58,947 nucleotides of DNA, taken from the NCBI GenBank assembly GCA_947631045.1, contig CANRJV010000002.1:1-58947 (forward strand), read 5' to 3'. The notes under the pieces were generated by a model that was given only the letters and a program-made list of their open reading frames with translations, searched no databases and was not told the origin of the DNA. The stretch is from an uncultured Bacilli bacterium. Its GTDB lineage: Bacteria; Bacillota_I; Bacilli_A; RF39; UBA660. Of the stretch, positions 6,258 through 16,415 are shown in pieces (the first letter of the stretch is position 1; the number at the start of each line of letters is the position of its first letter). Both the position numbers and the translations under genes were made by a program.

Positions 6258-6966
6258 AGAAAAATTACAAGAATACAAAGAAAAATATAATCCTTTAAAA
6301 GAAAGAATTTTTCATAGTGTTGTCGCCAAAGAAGATTTAGAAAGACAAGAAAAAAAGGCTCGCCAAAATGTGCGAAAATTAGATAGTAAGATAATCGAAA
6401 AGCAAGCAAAAATGCGGTTAGATATTATGCATTTAAGAGAAAAATTAAAAAAGCGCTATAAGAAAAACTTTTTCTTAGGTCTGGGAGCATCTTTATTTTT
6501 AGGTTTATTTTGTGTTTATACATTTCCGGTAGCTCAAGATTTAAGTATTATTGATTATATTTTAAAATATGGTTCTGGACTTTTAATCTTTGATATGGCT
6601 TGTGGAATTGCTTATAAAACTTACCGAAATAATATTCATAATTTACCGACATTCACTGATGAAGATATTAAAACAACAGAAGTAGATAAATTAATTGAGG
6701 AAAGAGACTTAGCGATTGATAAAGAAAAAGAAATAAGTACAACTCTTAAAATAGTTAAGGATTATTTAACAAATTTAAAAGAGACTAAAGTAGAATTAGA
6801 AAATTTAATTTGGTGTTTATTTTATCCTGAAGATTTGATAGATGATAGAAAGACTACACCTTTAGGGTTAGATAAATGGTTAGAGATAAATACGGAAGAA
6901 GAAAAAGTAGAAGTGGGACCTCTTTTAATAAGAGAAAATCCTTATAATAAAAAGAAAGGAAGATAG
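6247..6966 (+). CDS. hypothetical coiled-coil membrane protein inserted between xseA and xseB
   Basis: 239 aa. Two hydrophobic segments (FFLGLGASLFLGLFCVYTF; GSGLLIFDMACGIAY) flanked by K/E-rich helices. Overlaps the xseA end by 11 nt and the xseB start by 1 nt. Confidence 0.7.
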   Translation: MINKEKLQEYKEKYNPLKERIFHSVVAKEDLERQEKKARQNVRKLDSKIIEKQAKMRLDIMHLREKLKKRYKKNFFLGLGASLFLGLFCVYTFPVAQDLSIIDYILKYGSGLLIFDMACGIAYKTYRNNIHNLPTFTDEDIKTTEVDKLIEERDLAIDKEKEISTTLKIVKDYLTNLKETKVELENLIWCLFYPEDLIDDRKTTPLGLDKWLEINTEEEKVEVGPLLIRENPYNKKKGR

Positions 6967-7220
6967 TGGTGAAAGAAGAAAAGAAAGAAAAAAATAAAGT
7001 TAATGAAAAAACTTTTGAAAGTAATTTAAAAGATTTAGAAGATTTAGTCAAAGAATTAGAAAGCGGTAATGTTCCTTTAGAAGATGCTATTATAAAATAT
7101 ACGGAAGCTATGGAACTAGCCAAAGATTGTAGTGAAAAATTAAATAATGCTACCGCAAAAGTAAATAAAATTTTAGCTAGTGATGGCGAACTTAAAGATT
7201 TTGAAACACCTGAAAATTAA
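6966..7220 (+). CDS. xseB: exodeoxyribonuclease VII small subunit
   Basis: 84 aa with a GTG start. XseB signature FE..L..LE.LV..LE.G.VPLEDAI..Y.EAMEL. Confidence 0.9.
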   Translation: MVKEEKKEKNKVNEKTFESNLKDLEDLVKELESGNVPLEDAIIKYTEAMELAKDCSEKLNNATAKVNKILASDGELKDFETPEN

Positions 7221-7252
7221 TTGTCATAAATTTACTTATGGCAATTTTTTTT
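7221..7252 (+). terminator. rho-independent terminator after xseB
   Basis: 9-bp stem TTGTCATAA/TTATGGCAA (one G-U pair), 6-nt loop, T8 run. Confidence 0.75.
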
Positions 7253-7304
7253 AATTTAAATTGTATAGAAAAAGTTTTAAAATTAATACTAGATAGTGAT
7301 TGAT

Positions 7305-8489
7305 ATGAAAGATAAAAAGAATTTTAAATGGTTAATTATTATAATTGTAATCTTACTTTTAGTAGTGGTTTTATTTGGTGTTTTATATGGCTATAATCTG
7401 AAAATTTCGAAAGAGTACGATTTAGAGATTAAAAATATTACTAAGCAAAATCAAGAGGCTTATAAAGATTATAATCAAAACATTGAATATTTAGATAAAT
7501 GGACTTATGAAGATATTCTAAATAATTTTGTAAGTAAAGATAGTTTATTTAAAGATACCAAGGTAATTATTTATTACAATAATGAAGAGATAAAAGAAAA
7601 TGATGAGATTTTATTTGATGTTATTGGTGACATTAAATTTAAAGTTATTTATGAAAATGATTTTAAGTATAAGACTTATAAAGAAATCAAAAAAGATATT
7701 AAAACTAGTAAAGATTATAATTTAAAAGTAGAAGATACTATTTTTCCTGTTTTAAGTGGTGTAGTTGATAAAGAAACTGTCATTGATAATTCTATTGATA
7801 TTAAAGAAGGAATAACGGCTTATGATGAAAAAGAAGGGAATATTGAAGTAACTATTGAAGGAGACGTAAATATTAAGGCGTCAGGTAGTTATAAAGTAAA
7901 AGCAGTGGCTGTTGATCATAATGGTAATAGAGCTGAACAAGAATTTACCGTTACGGTTAAAGAAAAACCTAAAACTACGACTAGTACACCTAAACCCAGT
8001 ACTTCTTCTAGTTCAAAGCCAAGCACCACTCCTAGTACTAGTCAAAGCGCTTGTCAAACTTCTAAAAGTACTCTCACTAAAAGAGGGTATAAATCAACAG
8101 ATAAAGATGCCTGTGAGAAAGATAAAGAAGCCAGTGTTATAGCCAAACAAATAGCAAATGAGGTTTTAGCTAAAGGATACACTAAAGATATTGATAAAGT
8201 AGGCGAGGCTGCTTCGATTGTTTCTAGTTATTATTATAAAGGAGTCCATGTGGAAAGTGGTCTTGATTACCGAACTCCTTATGGCGTTTTTATTAAAGGA
8301 GAATCATCTTGTGCAGGAGCTACGAGAGCCTTAGGTCAAGTTTTAGATGAACTAGGTTATTCCTGGACCCACGCGAATGAAAATGCTTGGACCCATCAAT
8401 GGGTAATTATTGAAATGGATGGCCAAATTGGTTTTGCTGATGGGCAAGTGGGGATGGTTGGCTATGGTAAGCATCCAGTAAGTGAATAA
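7305..8489 (+). CDS. membrane-anchored surface protein: Ig-like repeat, S/T/P linker and a transglutaminase-like Cys-His-Asp C-terminal domain
   Basis: N-terminal TM (WLIIIIVILLLVVVLFGVLYGY). DUF5011-like Ig segment (DTIFPVLSG...GSYKVKAVAVDHNGN). TTSTPKPSTSSSSKPSTTPSTS linker. C...H...D pattern (ESSCAGATRAL, WTHQWVII, GFADGQ). ATG 7305 preferred over the GTG at 7296. Confidence 0.6.
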   Translation: MKDKKNFKWLIIIIVILLLVVVLFGVLYGYNLKISKEYDLEIKNITKQNQEAYKDYNQNIEYLDKWTYEDILNNFVSKDSLFKDTKVIIYYNNEEIKENDEILFDVIGDIKFKVIYENDFKYKTYKEIKKDIKTSKDYNLKVEDTIFPVLSGVVDKETVIDNSIDIKEGITAYDEKEGNIEVTIEGDVNIKASGSYKVKAVAVDHNGNRAEQEFTVTVKEKPKTTTSTPKPSTSSSSKPSTTPSTSQSACQTSKSTLTKRGYKSTDKDACEKDKEASVIAKQIANEVLAKGYTKDIDKVGEAASIVSSYYYKGVHVESGLDYRTPYGVFIKGESSCAGATRALGQVLDELGYSWTHANENAWTHQWVIIEMDGQIGFADGQVGMVGYGKHPVSE

Positions 8490-8559
8490 CTTAAGAAGGT
8501 ATTTAAATACTTTCTTTTTTTGAGGAGTTATTTTATAATTAATTTTAGGGAGTAGAGTT

Positions 8560-10746
8560 ATGTACGCAGAAGTTTTAATCGAATATCCAACGAAAAAAAT
8601 TGATAAATATTTTACTTATAAAATTCCTTCTAATTATGAAAATATTTTAAAACCGGGAATGAAAGTCAAAGTACCTTTTGGGAGTAAAATTATCAATGGC
8701 TTTGTTATGCAAATAAAAGATAGTTTCGAGGCCACTTATGAATTAAAAGAAATAACTGATGTCGTTGACCCCGAATTAATATTAAATGATGAATTATTAA
8801 AACTAGGCCTATATTTAGAAGAAAAAACTTTATGTCCTAAAATATCGGCATATCAAACGATGTTGCCGGCTTCTTTAAAAATAAAAGATAATGATACTAA
8901 TTATACATACTATAAATCTTATTTGATTTTAAATAAATCTAAAGAAGAAATAGAAGAATATCTAAAAACTTATGATAAAGAAAATGCTCAAACTTTTCTT
9001 TTAAAAACTTTATTAAAAGAAGAGCGAGTTTTAAAAAAAGATTATAATTCTTATACGATAAAATCTTTAAAAGAAAAAGAATTAATTAAAGAGATAAAAG
9101 AACAAGAATATCGCATTCAAAAAGAGAAAAATAATAATGTTATTAAACATAAATTAAATGATGAACAAGAGAGGGCTTTTGAAGAAATAAAAAATACTTC
9201 TTCTTTTACCACTTTTTTACTTGAAGGAATAACTGGTAGTGGTAAAACGGAGGTTTATTTAAATTTAATTGAAGATACTATCAAAAAAGGTAAAACGGCC
9301 ATTATGTTAATTCCCGAAATTAGTTTAACCGTGGCTTTAGTAAATCGTTTTTATGAATGGTTTGGTTCAAAAGTAGCCATCTTTCATAGTGCTCTTTCCA
9401 ATGGGGAGAAATATGATGAATACTTAAAAATAATAAGAGGAGAAGTAAGCGTTGTTGTTGGTACGCGTTCGGCTATTTTTGTTCCTTTAGAAAATATTGG
9501 GATCATTATTATTGATGAAGAACATAGCGATACTTTTAAACAAGATAATATGCCAAGATATAATGCCAAAGATATTGCTTTAAAAAGAGGAGAATACCAT
9601 AATTGTCCTGTTGTTTTAGGAAGTGCGACTCCGACTTTAGAAGTAAGAGCGAGGGCCATGAAAGGAGTTTATAAGCATTTAAGACTTACGAAAAGAGCAG
9701 GAGAAGGAACCCTTCCTAAAGTAACCATTGTAGATATGGTAATGGAAGCTAAAAAAAGAAATTTTATTTTTAGTGATTTATTATTAGAAAAATTAAAGGA
9801 AACATTAAAAAGGAAAGAACAAGCCTTACTTTTATTAAATAGAAGAGGGTATTCGACTATTATTAATTGTTCATCTTGTGGTTTTACTTATAAATGTCCT
9901 AATTGTGATATTACCCTAACTTATCATAAATCATCTAATAATTTAAGATGCCATTATTGTGGTTATACGATTTCCAAAGATGATAAGTGTCCTAATTGTC
10001 ATGAAGATGGTCTTAACTATTTAGGTATGGGGACCGAAAAAGTTATGGAAGAGTTATTAAAAGTTCTTCCGGATGCTAAAGTCATTAGAATGGACCAAGA
10101 TACAACAACTAAAAAAGGAGCCCATGAAAAAATAATCGCGAGCTTTCGTAATCACGAATATGATATTTTACTAGGAACGCAAATGATTAGTAAAGGTTTA
10201 GATTTTCCGAATGTTACTTTAGTCGGAGTTATTAATGCCGATAGTTCTTTAAATATTCCAGATTTTCGGAGTAATGAAAAAACTTTTGCTCTTTTATATC
10301 AAGCCAGTGGAAGAGCGGGAAGAGCTAGTTTAAAAGGTGAAGTAATCTTACAAACATATAATCCGGATAATTATGTTTTAAGTTGTGTAAGAGAAAACAA
10401 TTTTAATAAATTTTTTGCTTATGAAATGAACATCAGAAAAATCTTAAAATATCCACCTTATTATTATTTAGTCGCTTTAAAAATCGTATCTAAAGATTAC
10501 AATATTGCTTTAGAAAATGCCACTAAAATTGTTAATTATTTAAAGAAAAATGTTTCCTCATCATCTATTGTTTTAGGCCCATCAACAGCAAGTTTGTTTA
10601 AATTTAATAATACGTATCGTTTTCAAGTAGTTATCAAATATCGTTTTGATGATAAATTATTTAAAATATTAAAATATCTAGATAGTATATATATAAATGA
10701 AAATAAGGTCAATTTAGAAATTGATATTGACCCATTACATATTTAA
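8560..10746 (+). CDS. priA: primosomal protein N' (replication restart helicase PriA)
   Basis: 728 aa. Walker A GITGSGKTEVY, DEEH box (IIIDEEHSD), and the Cys-rich zinc-binding insertion (CSSCG...CPNC...CHYCG...CPNC). Confidence 0.97.
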   Translation: MYAEVLIEYPTKKIDKYFTYKIPSNYENILKPGMKVKVPFGSKIINGFVMQIKDSFEATYELKEITDVVDPELILNDELLKLGLYLEEKTLCPKISAYQTMLPASLKIKDNDTNYTYYKSYLILNKSKEEIEEYLKTYDKENAQTFLLKTLLKEERVLKKDYNSYTIKSLKEKELIKEIKEQEYRIQKEKNNNVIKHKLNDEQERAFEEIKNTSSFTTFLLEGITGSGKTEVYLNLIEDTIKKGKTAIMLIPEISLTVALVNRFYEWFGSKVAIFHSALSNGEKYDEYLKIIRGEVSVVVGTRSAIFVPLENIGIIIIDEEHSDTFKQDNMPRYNAKDIALKRGEYHNCPVVLGSATPTLEVRARAMKGVYKHLRLTKRAGEGTLPKVTIVDMVMEAKKRNFIFSDLLLEKLKETLKRKEQALLLLNRRGYSTIINCSSCGFTYKCPNCDITLTYHKSSNNLRCHYCGYTISKDDKCPNCHEDGLNYLGMGTEKVMEELLKVLPDAKVIRMDQDTTTKKGAHEKIIASFRNHEYDILLGTQMISKGLDFPNVTLVGVINADSSLNIPDFRSNEKTFALLYQASGRAGRASLKGEVILQTYNPDNYVLSCVRENNFNKFFAYEMNIRKILKYPPYYYLVALKIVSKDYNIALENATKIVNYLKKNVSSSSIVLGPSTASLFKFNNTYRFQVVIKYRFDDKLFKILKYLDSIYINENKVNLEIDIDPLHI

Positions 10747-10749
10747 TAA

Positions 10750-10790
10750 AAAAGAAGATAATTAGTTTTTAACAACTTTATCTTCTTTTT
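10750..10790. terminator. bidirectional terminator between priA and the convergent RHH gene
   Basis: AAGAAGATA (10752-10760) pairs with TATCTTCTT (10779-10787). An A-run lies upstream and a T-run downstream. The hairpin overlaps the 3' end of the RHH CDS. Confidence 0.6.
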
Positions 10791-10929
10791 TCATATCTTT
10801 TTCTTTTTCAACTTCATTTTTAAGAATGTAAACAATTTGAGCATTAATACTCCTTTCATTTTTATCAGCTAATTTCTTAACTTCTTCAAATAAATCTTCA
10901 TCAATTCTTAAAATATATTCTTTTCTCAT
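10762..10929 (-). CDS. ribbon-helix-helix (Arc/CopG-type) DNA-binding protein; not in the supplied ORF track
   Basis: My own translation gives 55 aa: MRKEYILRIDEDLFEEVKKLADKNERSINAQIVYILKNEVEKEKDMKKEDKVVKN. It has the beta-strand / helix / helix pattern typical of RHH repressors. Divergent from the 792-aa gene. Confidence 0.75.
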   Translation of the reverse strand: MRKEYILRIDEDLFEEVKKLADKNERSINAQIVYILKNEVEKEKDMKKEDKVVKN

Positions 10930-10944
10930 AATACTATCTCTTTC

Positions 10945-11064
10945 TGATATCTATATGATATTATTAATTTGCTAGTTTTTATAGATGTCAAATTGATATC
11001 ATTTTGATTGAATAAAAATATTTAATGTATTATAATTTATTTAGATATCATATGGATATCATAT
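10945..11064. promoter_or_regulatory. divergent promoter region with three GATATC-type operator repeats
   Basis: Site 1 GATATCtatatGATAT (10945-), site 2 GATGTCaaattGATATC (10984-), site 3 GATATCatatgGATATC (11044-). Hexamers are spaced about one helical turn apart. Putative + strand promoter TTGAAT (11008-11013), 17 nt, TATAAT (11031-11036). The minus-strand TTGACA overlaps site 2. Confidence 0.6.
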
Positions 11065-11121: not shown

Positions 11122-13500
11122 ATGGTATATGATAATAGTAAAAGGAAAGTAATAATAGGAAGTATAGTGGCAGTAGTATTTTTATTGGTAATGATAATCG
11201 GAGCCACTTATGCCTATTTTTCCATAAATGTAAGTGGAGATAAAACAAGTACCAGTATTAATATTGAAACAGGAAGTGCCGATTATGTTGCTATAAAACA
11301 AGGTATTTCCAACTTACATATTAATTTATCAGTATCAGATATGTCCTCAAGTAGTAATATTAATGAATTTTATGCCACAAATGTCGAAAGTGAAAAATAT
11401 AAAACTAGTCGAAATGATGGGATTTTAGAATTTGCTAAAATAGAGATGAGTAGTAAAGAAGATTTAAAAGATAATTGTACATTTGATGTAGTATTAACTA
11501 TAGATACAAAAGAGAATTCTATGGGAAGAGTTTTACAAAATGGTGATGCAGAGTTTTACGTTGAGATAGGAGATTATAATGTAACATATGATTTAAGCAC
11601 ATTATTATCAGATCCAATACAAGATGAAGCAAAAAAAGAAATCAAAATGGAGACTAGTGTAACAAGTAGTAATCCTGCTGTAATTAAAGGATATTTAAAA
11701 ATAAATAATACTAATACTTATCAAAGTTATCTAGCAGGAAAAGCATTAAATATAAAAATAGATGCAAATAATTTAAAATGTGAATCAAGCAAAAAAGCAA
11801 GTGATATAGTAGTAAGGAATCCTCAAATAGAGACATTAGAACAAATGCAAGCAAGAAATGAAGGGATAAAATCAGCAGGAGGAGATGTTCAAGACGATTT
11901 AAGAAGATTTGTCGGAGATTATACAACAATTACAGATAACTTTATCTGTTTTGGAACAACTGATAAAGATGAATGCACAAGTAATAGAGATACCTATATG
12001 TATCGAATAATAGGAGTTGATACTCAAAATAGATTAAAATTAATCAAAGCAACAAAAATAGTAAAAGATGATGTAAATATATTTAAGTGGAATTCAGATT
12101 ATTCATCTGATATAAAATGGAATGCATCTGAATTATATAGTGGGTTAAATAGTGATTATTTTAAAGAGAATACAAAATATAGTTATATGCAAGACGCTCA
12201 TTGGACCAATTTAATTGATAAGCCATCATACTATGTTGGAGATTCAAAAAATACAACCAATCCGCAATTATTTAATAATGAAAGAAAAGAGAATTTTGTT
12301 GGTGAAAGCATAAGTTTAATATATCTAAGTGATTATTTATACGCAACCGATGGTGAAACTGATGTGGACAATTGGTTATTTATAGGAAATGGTTTAAATG
12401 GCGCACCAAATACTCCGGCTGAGACACCAAATCCATCATTAGATAAAGATTCTGAATGGACTATGTCGCGGTATGGTGTGGGCCTCACTAATTACTTTGC
12501 GCGGTTTGTGAATGGTGACGGGACTGTGAACAACAACTATGTGAACACTCCGTATGCGGTTCGCCCAGTCTTATATTTAAAAAGTTCAGTAAATATAACA
12601 AGTGGTAGTGGAAGTATAGATTCACCATATATATTAGATACATCATTAATTTCAAGTGAAATAACATCTCCTAATTTAGAAACTGAAATACAACTAAATG
12701 AAAGAAATGAAGAGATAACAACAGCAGGAGGAGAAGTACAAGACGACTTAAGAAGATTTGTAGGAGAATATACAGCAGTAACAGATAACTTTATTTGTTT
12801 TGGAACAAATGATAAAGATACATGTAAAGAAAATATGGATACCTATATGTATCGAATAATCGGTGTAGATACTCAAAATAGATTAAAGGTAATTAAAGCA
12901 ACAAAAATAGTTAAAGATAATGAAAGTAAATTTGCTTGGAATTTAGATTATCAATCTGATATAAAATGGAATGCATCTGAATTATATAGTGGGTTAAATG
13001 GTGATTACTTTATAAATAATTCAAATTATGCTTATATGCAAAATACGCAATGGACCAATTTAATATCACCTACAACATATTATATAGGAGACTCAGGTGA
13101 ATTAAATGTTACCAATTCACAAATGTTTAATAATGAAAGAAAAGAGAATTTTAACAATGGCAACAATATTAGTTTAATGTATATGAGTGATTACTTATAT
13201 GCTAATAATGGAACAGCTGATACCAATAATTGGTTATTTATAGCCAATGGATTAAATGGGGCCAAAAATAATGGAATCGGTGCCATTCAACCAACAGCAG
13301 AATACGAATGGCCAATGACCAGGTATGGCGCCTACACCGGTCCATACCATGCGTGGCTTGTTGGTTATAACGGGGCTATGACCATCTGTCGTTTCTTTGA
13401 ACTGCGTGCGGTGCGTCCTGTCTTCTATTTATCATCAAGAGTTAGGCTGAATGGAACTGGTACCATAGATAATCCATATTACATAACTAATGCAATTTAG
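11122..13500 (+). CDS. secreted two-module surface protein with a TasA/SipW-type signal and two hypervariable C-type-lectin-like cassettes
   Basis: 792 aa. N-terminal TM ends in GATYAYFS (SipW-cognate-like). Two ~283-aa modules each end in W..M.RYG...A..V...G......AVRPV.YL. Confidence 0.85.
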   Translation: MVYDNSKRKVIIGSIVAVVFLLVMIIGATYAYFSINVSGDKTSTSINIETGSADYVAIKQGISNLHINLSVSDMSSSSNINEFYATNVESEKYKTSRNDGILEFAKIEMSSKEDLKDNCTFDVVLTIDTKENSMGRVLQNGDAEFYVEIGDYNVTYDLSTLLSDPIQDEAKKEIKMETSVTSSNPAVIKGYLKINNTNTYQSYLAGKALNIKIDANNLKCESSKKASDIVVRNPQIETLEQMQARNEGIKSAGGDVQDDLRRFVGDYTTITDNFICFGTTDKDECTSNRDTYMYRIIGVDTQNRLKLIKATKIVKDDVNIFKWNSDYSSDIKWNASELYSGLNSDYFKENTKYSYMQDAHWTNLIDKPSYYVGDSKNTTNPQLFNNERKENFVGESISLIYLSDYLYATDGETDVDNWLFIGNGLNGAPNTPAETPNPSLDKDSEWTMSRYGVGLTNYFARFVNGDGTVNNNYVNTPYAVRPVLYLKSSVNITSGSGSIDSPYILDTSLISSEITSPNLETEIQLNERNEEITTAGGEVQDDLRRFVGEYTAVTDNFICFGTNDKDTCKENMDTYMYRIIGVDTQNRLKVIKATKIVKDNESKFAWNLDYQSDIKWNASELYSGLNGDYFINNSNYAYMQNTQWTNLISPTTYYIGDSGELNVTNSQMFNNERKENFNNGNNISLMYMSDYLYANNGTADTNNWLFIANGLNGAKNNGIGAIQPTAEYEWPMTRYGAYTGPYHAWLVGYNGAMTICRFFELRAVRPVFYLSSRVRLNGTGTIDNPYYITNAI
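11830..13497 (+). repeat. intragenic tandem duplication (two ~849-852-nt modules)
   Basis: For example, TCTGATATAAAATGGAATGCATCTGAATTATATAGTGGGTTAAAT occurs at 12106 and again at 12955 (offset 849). A 90-nt stretch I compared (11881 versus its counterpart in module 2) had 10 mismatches. Confidence 0.9.
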
Positions 13501-13527
13501 AGGGGAATATTTCCTCTCTTTTAATAA
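13500..13527 (+). terminator. rho-independent terminator after the 792-aa gene
   Basis: GAGGGGAA/TTCCTCTC 8-bp stem (one G-U pair), 3-nt loop, then TTTT. Confidence 0.6.
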
Positions 13528-13573
13528 TATAAAAATTATGATATAATCTATATTAGAATACAAGGAGAGCATT

Positions 13574-15496
13574 ATGAGTGATGATTTTAATTATGATAAT
13601 GAGATAATTGAGTTAGAAAGTGATTCTAGTGATGAAGAAGTAGAAGTATTAGATACTTTGGAAGAAGAAGGAAAAGAAAAAAAGAAAAAGAAGAAAAAGA
13701 AGAAAAAAAGTAGGAGAAGTTTAAAAGATTGGTGGAGTGATTTATCAAAAGGTGGTAAATTAGGAATTATTTTAGGAATAGGTTTATTACTTCTTTTAAT
13801 TGCGGGATTAATTATTTATTTTGTCATATTTAGAAAAGATGAAGAAAAAGAGGAACCAAAAGACCCTGTTATTGTGGAAAAAGATAACTATCGATATGAA
13901 AATGGTAAATTAATCTTTTTAGATATTTATGATAAAGAAATAGGTAGTTATGAATGTAGTGAAAAAGATAGCGAAAAATGTTTTGTTGCTAAACCTGATT
14001 ACTCTAATGATGAAATGGAAAGAATTATTAGTGTTAATGAATTAGGGGAAGAAATTATTAAAAATAGTCAAATATATAGTAATAATTATGTTTTTATTAA
14101 TGATAATAATAAAGAATTCTTATATGATATAAAGAAAAATGAAAGTATTTTAGATGTTACTAATTTTAAAACTTATAGTACGAATAAAGATGTTGTAGTT
14201 ATTGAAGATGAATCTAATAAATATGGTTTAATTGAAATAAATAATAATGGTTTTGATTATTTAATTAGACCAAGTTATGATAACTTAGGAATAATTAATG
14301 GTAATTTAATTTATTTAGTAGCCAAAGATAAAACTGATAATTATATAATAGATAGTACAGGTAAAAAGATTAGTGAAGTTATACCTGGAACAATTAAAAG
14401 TGCTAATAGTGATTATATAGTTAGTCTAAATAGTAATAAATACGATTTATATGCTTATGATAAATCAAAATTATTAGAAAGTTATGATTATATTGGATTA
14501 CATGAAAATGTTATATCTTTAGTTAAAAGTAGTAGATTATATCTTTTAGACAATAATTTAAGTAAATTAAATGAGGAAGGGATTAGATTAACTTCAAATG
14601 ATTATGTTAAAAAATATGTTTATGATGAAAATAAAAATTTAAAAGAAACTAAGGTTGCTTATGAGATTAGTATGGGTGATAATGCGATATTAATTAATTT
14701 AGGTAATGAAACAAAGAGCCTTAACTTATATGAAGGTATTGTTTCTAGTGGTATATCATATCTTAGCTATTTTGATGGAACTTTATACTTTTATAAAGAT
14801 GATGAAAAATTAGATTTATTAAGTACTTATAAATGTAATAATAAAAATGAAATAAATTCTAGTACTAGTACCTTTAATAAATGTAATCTTTATCAAAAAG
14901 ATGGTAAATATACAGGAATTTATAATAATCAATATGTCTTTATATATGATAATATATCCGATACTGATGCTAAGATTTATTTATACGATTTAAAAACTAA
15001 AAAAGTAAAAGGAACATATAGTAGTCTAGAACTTACAAATAGTGTGGAACTTAATGACGATGTAAGACAACTAGAAACAACTTCTTCTTATTTCATTGCT
15101 AAAAGTGCTGTTGGTAATAATACAGGTAATTATGGTGTTATTGAAATAAATAGTAGTACTGTTAAAGGTAAAATTGAATTTAAATATAAAAATATTAAAT
15201 ACAATAATAAATATTATTTAATGATTAATGATGATTCATATGTTGTTTATGATGATACTTTCAAAAAGATTAGTAATGAATTTGACTATATCGATTTATA
15301 TGATGATTATTATGTGGGAATTAAAAATAATTCCTTAAATGTTTATAAATATAGTAGTGCTCTTGGTATCTTAAGTTGGGATTTAGATGTTTCTGATAAT
15401 AAATATGAAATTGAATTTGATGACAAAGGATTTATAATTACAATTAATAATTCTGAACATAAATACGATAAAGATGGGTATACCAGATATGATTAA
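13574..15496 (+). CDS. single-pass membrane protein with an acidic/poly-Lys cytoplasmic head and a large repeat-rich ectodomain
   Basis: 640 aa. D/E-rich N-terminus, K11 run, TM GKLGIILGIGLLLLLIAGLIIYFVIF. N/Y/D-rich beta-repeat region with weak WG-like units (NKYGLIEINNNGFDYLIRPSYD). Confidence 0.75.
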   Translation: MSDDFNYDNEIIELESDSSDEEVEVLDTLEEEGKEKKKKKKKKKKSRRSLKDWWSDLSKGGKLGIILGIGLLLLLIAGLIIYFVIFRKDEEKEEPKDPVIVEKDNYRYENGKLIFLDIYDKEIGSYECSEKDSEKCFVAKPDYSNDEMERIISVNELGEEIIKNSQIYSNNYVFINDNNKEFLYDIKKNESILDVTNFKTYSTNKDVVVIEDESNKYGLIEINNNGFDYLIRPSYDNLGIINGNLIYLVAKDKTDNYIIDSTGKKISEVIPGTIKSANSDYIVSLNSNKYDLYAYDKSKLLESYDYIGLHENVISLVKSSRLYLLDNNLSKLNEEGIRLTSNDYVKKYVYDENKNLKETKVAYEISMGDNAILINLGNETKSLNLYEGIVSSGISYLSYFDGTLYFYKDDEKLDLLSTYKCNNKNEINSSTSTFNKCNLYQKDGKYTGIYNNQYVFIYDNISDTDAKIYLYDLKTKKVKGTYSSLELTNSVELNDDVRQLETTSSYFIAKSAVGNNTGNYGVIEINSSTVKGKIEFKYKNIKYNNKYYLMINDDSYVVYDDTFKKISNEFDYIDLYDDYYVGIKNNSLNVYKYSSALGILSWDLDVSDNKYEIEFDDKGFIITINNSEHKYDKDGYTRYD

Positions 15497-16415
15497 TAAA
15501 AAAACAGTATTGGTAACAATTATTATTTTGCTTTGTATTTTTGCTCCTTTAACGGTTGTTAGTTATTTTCTCAAAGAAGAAAAAAATCCTTTTGATAAGA
15601 ATCCTCATCATGATTTTTATTATAAAAATATGCTTTGGTTTTATGATGAAGATGATAAACTAGTAAACACTTTTGCTTGTACAACTGATACTTGTAATTA
15701 TGCATCTTCCATAATTAAGGATGATTCTTATGAGATTAATTATTATAAAAATGGTTCTTTAACGCAAACTAGTTTAATAAATAATGATTATGCTTTTATT
15801 AAAGATGGGGCTTTAATTAAACTTTTTAGTGTTAAACAAGGAAGTGTTTTACAAAATTATAAAACTATAAATACTTATAATACGAATATTGAAAATGATG
15901 CTTATATTTTAGAAAATGAAAATAATTTATGGGGAGTTGTTAGTTTAAAAGAAAATATTATGAGTATTCTTCCTTTTGAATATAGTTATATTGCTCTAAA
16001 AGATAATGTGGTTGATGGTATACTTAGTAGTAAAACATTTATTGTGGAGAAAGATGATAAATGGTATTTAGTTAGTGATGATAATACTTCCTTAACATCT
16101 TTATATAATGAGCCTATAGTGGATTATAACAATAGATATGTGATTACTAAAAAAGAGGGAAGAGTTAGAATTTATAATTATGCGGGCTTAGAATATTTAC
16201 CTAATGAGTTTGTTAGTGATTATGTATTAGAAGGTAATTATTTAGGAATTATTAGTCAAAATGTTTTCTATTTATATAATAATTTAGATTCAAACTATTT
16301 AAAGGCTATTACTTTAAATGAGGAAGAAAGTAATATAGAGATGGAAATAGATAACAATAATATTGTCATCAAATCTAATGGTAATGTTATTGATACTCTT
16401 GCGCTTACGGCATAA
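15474..16415 (+). CDS. shorter membrane-anchored paralogue of the preceding ectodomain protein
   Basis: 313 aa. TM VLVTIIILLCIFAPLTVVSYF. Shares Cys-containing and NDYAFIKDG/NNYVFINDN-type segments with 13574-15496. Overlaps the upstream gene; an alternative ATG lies at 15489. Confidence 0.75.
   Translation: MGIPDMINKKTVLVTIIILLCIFAPLTVVSYFLKEEKNPFDKNPHHDFYYKNMLWFYDEDDKLVNTFACTTDTCNYASSIIKDDSYEINYYKNGSLTQTSLINNDYAFIKDGALIKLFSVKQGSVLQNYKTINTYNTNIENDAYILENENNLWGVVSLKENIMSILPFEYSYIALKDNVVDGILSSKTFIVEKDDKWYLVSDDNTSLTSLYNEPIVDYNNRYVITKKEGRVRIYNYAGLEYLPNEFVSDYVLEGNYLGIISQNVFYLYNNLDSNYLKAITLNEEESNIEMEIDNNNIVIKSNGNVIDTLALTA

Follow-up and report, generated by a model that had tools for sequence, protein, structure and literature searches.

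A two-module surface protein of an uncultured gut Bacilli bacterium as a very probable target of a diversity-generating retroelement

Positions 1 to 58,947 of contig CANRJV010000002.1 (GenBank assembly GCA_947631045.1; uncultured Bacilli bacterium, lineage RF39), a stretch of 58,947 nt that is hereafter referred to as the window, include a gene of 792 aa that is very probably a surface-anchored target of a diversity-generating retroelement (DGR), with two DUF6273-type ligand-binding modules and a variable region (VR) forming the last ~108 nt of each. An earlier note on the same DNA had drawn attention to two GC-rich cassettes at equivalent positions of a duplicated module and proposed them as DGR variable regions. 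This proposal is supported by hypervariable positions that coincide with Asn codons in the template repeats (TRs) of relatives, by DGR cores located next to paralogs of the gene in those relatives, by adenine-biased mismatches between the cassettes and the TRs, and by a probable DUF6273-like fold. Remote targets, several VRs per DGR, several VRs per open reading frame (ORF), more than one TR per DGR, genes for MutS-like proteins (MSL), and orphan targets have all been described (PMC5758913; PMC6642488; PMC4891356); the DGR system itself is hence known, and what is new here is a target family that had no annotation, in a lineage without cultured members. The features discussed are compiled in Table 1.

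The two cassettes (12454-12579 and 13306-13431) are each 126 nt in length, lie in frame, and are translated into EWTMSRYGVGLTNYFARFVNGDGTVNNNYVNTPYAVRPVLYL and EWPMTRYGAYTGPYHAWLVGYNGAMTICRFFELRAVRPVFYL, respectively. They contain 28 and 22 adenines and 60 and 65 G+C (47.6% and 51.6%) and differ from each other at 51 of 126 positions, and on recounting, all of these values from the earlier note were reproduced. The VRs are located within the cassettes, although their actual bounds, as obtained from TR comparison, lie slightly inside those first proposed. The composition of the cassettes is abnormal for the window, which has 27.3% GC and 38.5% A overall: 126-nt segments with at least 47.6% GC amount to 0.35% and fall into seven clusters, among which the two cassettes are the highest in GC, and the remaining five clusters (GC 0.44-0.45) are found inside other genes, e.g., that of ValRS, and hold nothing VR-like. 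Codon usage is the sharpest signal of this anomaly. Four-fold degenerate codons end in A in 1/21 cases in VR1 and 1/20 in VR2, versus 114/192 (59%) in the rest of the gene (p ~1e-6 for each VR), and they end in G or C in 14/21, 10/20, and 29/192 cases, respectively; adenine is therefore avoided at scaffold and synonymous sites in both VRs, and the rare codons reported in the earlier note are borne out. Across loci, TRs comprise 29-33% A and VRs 14-26% A, and the VRs of the window comprise 21% and 15% A.

The 792-aa protein has been placed in a family by a protein search, which returned 77 homologs. Most are single-module proteins of ~500 aa that uncultured Bacilli encode in metagenome assemblies of ENA and NCBI; they are without names and with almost no Pfam assignment, and one homolog (P0030) carries a precomputed PF19789 match. 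Many homologs end in EWTM(T/S)RYG......AW.V...G.V.........AVRPVFYL, where the dotted positions are different in every protein, and the hypervariable positions of this C-terminal motif coincide exactly with Asn (AAY) codons in the TRs of relatives. A scan of GTDB species representatives revealed 478 coding stretches of the family. Individual metagenome-assembled genomes (MAGs) hold many loci, with at least 12 in Lapin-016__bin2 and 16 in Lapin-033__bin45, and further copies come from MAGs of Hadza gut and goat rectal origin and from some labelled Mycoplasma sp. Judging from these sequences, the family sits in uncultured, Mycoplasma-like gut Bacilli as a large paralogous set. Two VR-like segments in relatives, at L155 10642-10750 (109 nt) and L218 1813-1942 (130 nt), are out of frame, with stops in the expected frame, and may represent decayed targets or repeat assembly errors.

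The syntenic ortholog of the target gene is P0008 (locus L001) of Lapin-016__bin2, where it is followed by genes for 634 aa and 313 aa, ValRS, and def. Between the window and this MAG, ValRS is 94% identical, the adjoining protein 86%, and the flanking DNA ~85%, whereas the target gene is just 66-71% identical; at the four-fold sites of ValRS, 53% differ. The ValRS comparison, together with synteny, identifies the window organism as a sister species of Lapin-016__bin2.

DGR cores have been located in the fetched loci of relatives, which are denoted by L-numbers; L147 belongs to the same MAG as the ortholog L001, and L174, L181, L190, and L191 are loci of the MAG CANRTI. A scan of the fetched loci for the YxDD motif revealed ORFs of ~375 aa with GLPIGNMTSQ...YIRYMDDF in L147, L174, and L180. 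In L147, a target gene of the family with its own VR is followed by a first TR (TR-A), an ORF of the PD-(D/E)XK type, a second TR (TR-B), and genes for an MSL, Avd, and reverse transcriptase (RT) (Table 1). The best PDB match of this RT is a 328-aa reverse transcriptase, 8ub7_A (E 3e-23), which we take to be the bRT of a Bordetella phage. A core of the same type is also present in L174, L228, and L232, and the RT is additionally found on contigs L223-L227. RTs with 89-91% identity to that of L147 were found in several rabbit-gut samples and one further MAG, at a shared chromosomal site adjoining HIGH_NTase1, miaA, and rpsT. Five metagenome contigs with RT P0078 (L223, 1-190; ends of L224-L227) all end just 5′ of the MutS-like gene, within the TR/spacer repeat; assemblies thus break at TR/VR repeats, and the orphaned look of targets in MAGs can in part be put down to this. 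The PD-(D/E)XK_2 ORF, which is transposase-like, recurs just 5′ of the core TR unit, as in L147, and its C-terminal fragments are seen in L228 (1-165), L232 (1-109), and L233 (1-352).

The TRs reside in conserved units of ~280 nt, which consist of a leader (TATAGGTAATCTTGATATTAAAG), an Asn-rich repeat (for example VRYGYNGSNYRARNVNSDGTVNNNNLNNTNAVRPAFY), a 3′ end of the form ...CCAG[A/C]CTTCTAT that then diverges into AACTTGAA, a spacer (GGGAAGATAGAAGACAAAGATTATCTAGGAT), and a hairpin with a T-run. Such units were found in L147 (two), L151, L188, L191 (three), L220, L174, L216, L228, L231, L232, and L233 (two). Several of them immediately follow a target gene while the fetched flanks (≤10 kb) are free of any RT, namely that of L151 (10965-11215) and all three of L191, where three consecutive target-then-TR pairs extend over 6653-10990. 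Separate TR-spacer units are likewise located on contigs other than those of the sole RT loci seen (L174, 12480-13604, and that of L147). Fully degenerate TR patterns (A fixed; C, G, and T each allowed as A) matched only poly-A/poly-T runs in viral_contigs. The Rfam search of the TR units gave no matching family, the conserved spacer motif had 0 matches in viral_contigs and metagenome_contigs, and on the contigs of paralogs P0017 and P0019 there is no TR downstream.

Family VRs are diversified from a TR wherever both are at hand. Over its last 81 nt, the L147 VR differs from TR-A by 10 mismatches, all of them at TR adenines and 0 elsewhere. In CANRTI, VRs on three other contigs were compared with the TR at L191:6653, yielding mismatches at A and non-A positions of 12 and 3 for L174, 14 and 5 for L181, and 10 and 3 for L190. 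Three of the non-A mismatches in each of these VRs fall at the 3′ end of the repeat, where the initiation of mutagenic homing sequence (IMH) of the VR differs from its TR counterpart (IMH*) (GCCTCTTAT vs. GTCTTCTAT), and L181 has two more upstream. Since these VRs and their TR are on separate contigs, remote targets acted on in trans are normal in the clade.

The VRs of the window were compared with TRs that all stem from other genomes (sister species or strains), so that non-A mismatches of the window VRs are not interpretable in themselves. Over a 69-nt core, GCG(C/T)GG...CCA, VR1 differs from the L147b TR at 7/23 adenines and 2/46 other positions (p 5e-3) and from the L231 TR at 9/25 and 2/44 (p 1e-3); the corresponding values for VR2 are 19/25 and 9/44 against L231 (p 8e-6) and 19/23 and 11/46 against L147b (p 4e-6). 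With sister TRs as surrogates, mismatches are accordingly adenine-biased in both VRs. Furthermore, VR1 is 85% identical to TR-B of L147 over 87 nt, and no other VR in the fetched loci is as close to TR-B. In a second test, which follows the approach of a study on Treponema (PMC4891356), the comparison was restricted to columns without variation among 10 TRs from six genomes. At these columns, VR1 has mismatches at 2/8 A and 0/26 non-A positions and VR2 at 6/8 A and 3/26 non-A positions, and most of the other VRs scored give values alike.

The two VRs differ in the class of TR that they resemble. VR1 contains GCG CGG (Ala-Arg), as in TR-B, L151, and L233b, and VR2 contains GCG TGG (Ala-Trp), as in TR-A, L231, and L232, which suggests two different TR classes for the two modules. 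The earlier note had regarded the cassettes as one variable region doubled by module duplication; each module does have a VR, but the two look like products of the Ala-Arg and Ala-Trp classes and not like one VR that was doubled and then diversified. A single TR for both cassettes was considered and rejected: it would force A at all 51 differing positions and result in many AAA codons, and the real TRs pointed to two classes.

The explanation that the cassettes are not DGR-related at all, and instead represent a conserved structural motif of the family, in which selection or gene conversion between paralogs maintains the GC-rich codons and the differences are ordinary divergence, draws on flanks that diverge between the modules as much as the cassettes do and on the highly multicopy nature of the family, which makes gene conversion plausible. 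The identity of modules 1 and 2 is 80-96% over the first ~350 nt only, then 66-76% over the next 250 nt, and drops to 52-58% from the stretch before the cassette through the cassette itself and into the tail behind it. This explanation is nevertheless highly improbable and is already contradicted by the relatives, in which non-coding, Asn-rich copies of the repeat with a conserved spacer and terminator adjoin Avd and RT genes and TR/VR differences within a genome are confined to adenines. It also has to contend with the strong adenine bias of the mismatches of both window cassettes to TRs, and with the avoidance of A at synonymous sites, which is unexplained by selection at the protein level. 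In the alignment over 11800-13500, module identity declines gradually from 5′ to 3′ (96% to 52%) with no step at the VR, which suggests, as far as the alignment can tell, partial gene conversion of the N-terminal halves or the fusion of two different paralogs and not a simple recent tandem duplication. An argument for post-duplication rewriting from the comparison of the modules was dropped, given that the flanks diverge as much as the VRs.

The fold of the modules has been approached by sequence and structure comparison. Pfam DUF6273 (PF19789) was detected on module 2 only (aa 604-771; E 0.0019), at 18.5 bits and hence below the 23.5-bit gathering score. DUF6273 is a C-type-lectin-like DGR target domain that includes known targets (PMC10743442). 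The AlphaFold2 model of module 2 has a pLDDT of 91.2 and a pTM of 0.90, and in BFVD its top Foldseek matches come from DUF6273 proteins of phages (E 9e-6 to 1e-3, probability 1.0, TM ~0.5), with DUF1566 proteins lower among the viral-structure neighbours. On the basis of this model, a lectin-like scaffold of the modules is plausible. The PDB sequence search with the target protein gave no matches.

Several observations weigh against the 792-aa gene being a DGR target of the proposed kind. The cassette flanks diverge between the modules as much as the cassettes, which are consequently not islands within otherwise identical repeats, and the module comparison alone is no proof of local hypermutation. 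In the PDB, C-type lectins and the C-terminal domain of Legionella Lcl are matched by the fold only weakly (E 0.56-1.1, probability ≤0.44). VR2 has 9-11 non-A mismatches to every sampled TR, 6/9 of those against L231 being GC-to-AT, and the 5′ third of VR1 fits no sampled TR with A-only changes. An anchored exact pattern for the TR of VR1, in which scaffold positions were fixed as non-A bases, had 0 matches in genome_contigs and metagenome_contigs; an exact pattern of this kind misses even the nearest TRs, which carry 2 non-A differences from VR1. A significant DNA hairpin of the BPP-1 type was sought after the VRs, and none was found. Finally, the IMH-like ends of both VRs are 1-2 bases off the family consensus. 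Family VRs end in GCGGTTCGYCCAGTCTTCTAT / ...CCAGTCTTCTAT; VR1 ends in CCAGTCTTATAT, with one deviation (TTC to TTA), and VR2 in CCTGTCTTCTAT, with two (GTT to GTG and CCA to CCT). Judged by sequence, a 3′ IMH element is present that is common to VR and TR yet distinct from the IMH* of the TR.

The deviations of VR2 and of the IMH-like ends also bear on whether the cassettes are orphan or fossil VRs, written by a past DGR in a genome that has since lost the RT/TR core or the TR class of VR2, and now drifting. As the earlier note had stated, no RT, Avd, or template is present in the window: ungapped matching of either cassette to the rest of it reaches 54/126 at best (noise), so that there is no TR-like copy; no YxDD motif occurs among its ORFs of at least 150 aa; tblastn of a relative's RT, Avd, MSL, and adjoining DGR-locus proteins against the window gave no match; and blastn of whole TR-spacer units matched VR1 only (12490-12576), with the spacer part unmatched. 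No RT or TR has been recovered for the window organism, GC-to-AT is the direction of drift in a genome of 27% GC, and orphan DGR targets are documented for Treponema denticola strains without a core (PMC4891356). For VR2, the cognate TR may be among those not sampled, or drift may have begun. VR1, by contrast, retains all 26 non-A bases that are invariant in TRs, along with its rare G/C-ending codons, even though 53% of the four-fold sites of ValRS differ from the sister species, an argument for VR1 having been rewritten from a conserved TR since the two species separated. The near absence of A-ending four-fold codons from both VRs despite this divergence implies that any loss of the core is recent, and RTs at the conserved chromosomal site persist in the sister genomes and several rabbit-gut samples. 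Orphan or fossil VRs are therefore regarded as unlikely, and on balance it is somewhat probable that the window genome still carries a DGR core.

As a target acted on in trans, the window gene would be one among many paralogous targets per genome. Short RNA genes, each with a conserved leader, an Asn-rich TR, a conserved spacer, and a terminator, would be transcribed elsewhere in the genome; the DGR RT, with Avd and the MutS-like accessory protein, would copy the TR into cDNA with misincorporation opposite template adenines; and the cDNA would replace the homologous VR, guided by the common 3′ end (GCGGTTCGYCCAG-T-CTTCTAT in VRs, with A or C at the dash position in TRs). VR1 would belong to the Ala-Arg TR class and looks recently written, and VR2 would belong to the Ala-Trp class, with an unsampled cognate TR or with decay begun. 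More tentatively, and with somewhat less confidence than an even chance would warrant, a distributed DGR network may exist in the clade, in which one RT-Avd-MSL locus serves many separate TR-spacer RNA genes, the Ala-Arg and Ala-Trp TR classes rewrite separate subsets of the paralogs, of which there are a dozen or more, and the window gene is a two-VR target whose modules are diversified independently by two TRs. Several TR units directly 3′ of target paralogs may then lie tens of kilobases or whole contigs from the RT.

The DGR of Treponema denticola acts on TvpA and seven remote targets, and orphan targets are found in isolates without the core (PMC5758913; PMC4891356). The system described here is similarly chromosomal and apparently non-phage and would act in trans on scattered paralogous surface proteins, with a VR that lies C-terminally in a lectin-like domain (putatively so here), variant TRs within the clade, and targets without a nearby core. 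The two differ in the target domain, which is DUF6273-like here and of the FGE-sulfatase/TvpA type there, in the accessory set of MSL and Avd, and in the presence of two VRs in one ORF; moreover, the relatives studied here have more targets (at least 12-16 loci per genome) and several separate TR-spacer units, some of them far from the RT. According to Wu et al. (2018, PMC5758913), the presence of MSL in a DGR goes along with avd and with the lack of HRDC. The core of the relatives, with TR, MutS-like gene, Avd, and RT on one strand, resembles these DGRs (Architecture D of Wu et al., 2018, including that of Legionella pneumophila), a likeness in gene architecture; the host here is a low-GC, Mycoplasma-like gut Bacilli bacterium with several TR units per genome and another target family.

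Bordetella phage BPP-1 (Mtd, bRT, and bAvd) shares with the present system the adenine-specific TR-to-VR differences, an AAY-rich TR, a VR at the 3′ end of the target, IMH and IMH* that differ where the repeat ends 3′, and a spacer that follows the TR; 8ub7_A, the best PDB match of the L147 RT, is presumably its bRT. It differs from the present system in that the system here is cellular and not phage-borne, targets are numerous and acted on in trans, a GC-rich hairpin was not detected after the VR, and there are several TRs and an additional MSL gene. The DUF6273 DGR targets of gut phages (tentaclins and the targets of Faecalibacterium prophages) differ from the window protein in their Pfam assignment, which is sub-threshold here, and in being phage receptor-binding proteins, whereas the window protein would be cellular and membrane-anchored, with the domain duplicated in tandem and a VR in each copy.

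Table 1. Features of the target gene in the window and of the DGR core locus L147 of the sister species
Sequence	Feature	Position	Strand	Basis or remark
Window	Putative DGR target gene	11122..13500	+	ORF of 792 aa: hydrophobic N-terminal anchor, variable N-terminal region, two tandem DUF6273-like modules, each with terminal VR
Window	N-terminal hydrophobic segment VIIGSIVAVVFLLVMIIGATYAYF	11149..11220	+	Read from the translation
Window	Module 1, DUF6273-like, ending with VR1 and a short G.G.I..PY tail	11857..12640	+	Module alignment
Window	Module 2, DUF6273-like, ending with VR2 and a tail of the module 1 type	12706..13497	+	Sub-cut-off Pfam match, AlphaFold2 model, Foldseek BFVD neighbours
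Window	VR1 in module 1, Ala-Arg class	12469..12576	+	Inside cassette 12454-12579; bounds from TR comparison
Window	VR2 in module 2, Ala-Trp class	13321..13428	+	Inside cassette 13306-13431; bounds from TR comparison
Window	IMH-like 3′ end of VR1, GCGGTTCGCCCAGTCTTATAT	12556..12576	+	Comparison with family VR and TR ends
Window	IMH-like 3′ end of VR2, GCGGTGCGTCCTGTCTTCTAT	13408..13428	+	Comparison with family VR and TR ends
L147	Family target gene	9539-10807		VR at ~10625-10732
L147	TR-A	10942-11043		
L147	PD-(D/E)XK ORF	11281-12102		PDDEXK_2, E 3e-14
L147	TR-B	12155-12259		
L147	MutS-like protein (MSL), 129 aa	12530-12919		MutS_I, E 2.5e-6
L147	Avd	12903-13283		bAvd, E 6.7e-7; NCBIfam DGR Avd NF033474, E 5.8e-10, below its cut-off
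L147	RT	13252-14394		RVT_1, E 1.5e-16

The hydrophobic segment at the N terminus of the 792-aa protein is likely a membrane anchor or signal peptide, and it suggests that the protein is exposed at the cell surface. The two genes 3′ of the target (13574-16415; 640 aa and 313 aa) encode proteins with hydrophobic N-terminal segments and no Pfam family, the first of which begins with an acidic stretch and a poly-Lys run; both are syntenic in the sister species, where the first is 86% identical. Another protein with an N-terminal anchor, of 397 aa, is encoded at 7296-8489 and has a weak match to a bacterial Ig-like domain and a Ser/Thr/Pro-rich linker; the GC-rich 3′ end of its gene (8351-8487) has no VR-like motif and no RP.FY-type ending. 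No tRNA genes were found in the window. GC skew is positive in nearly all 1-kb segments of 1-58947, and the + strand carries the majority of ORFs of ≥100 aa, a pattern that fits a single replichore of a small chromosome with low GC. Read with genetic code 11, the ORFs are long, and TGA recoding is not evident.

The compositional anomaly of the two cassettes is explained as the footprint of targeted hypermutation, and a surface-protein family without Pfam assignment or database names is identified as a DGR target family of uncultured gut Bacilli. For annotation, this means that a DGR target is recognizable from the VR alone, by synonymous sites depleted of A, rare codons rich in GC, and a 3′ element that is conserved, and that such recognition works with the RT and TR on other contigs, as is common in MAGs. 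The finding also suggests that these gut bacteria with reduced genomes invest heavily in varying their ligand-binding surface proteins.

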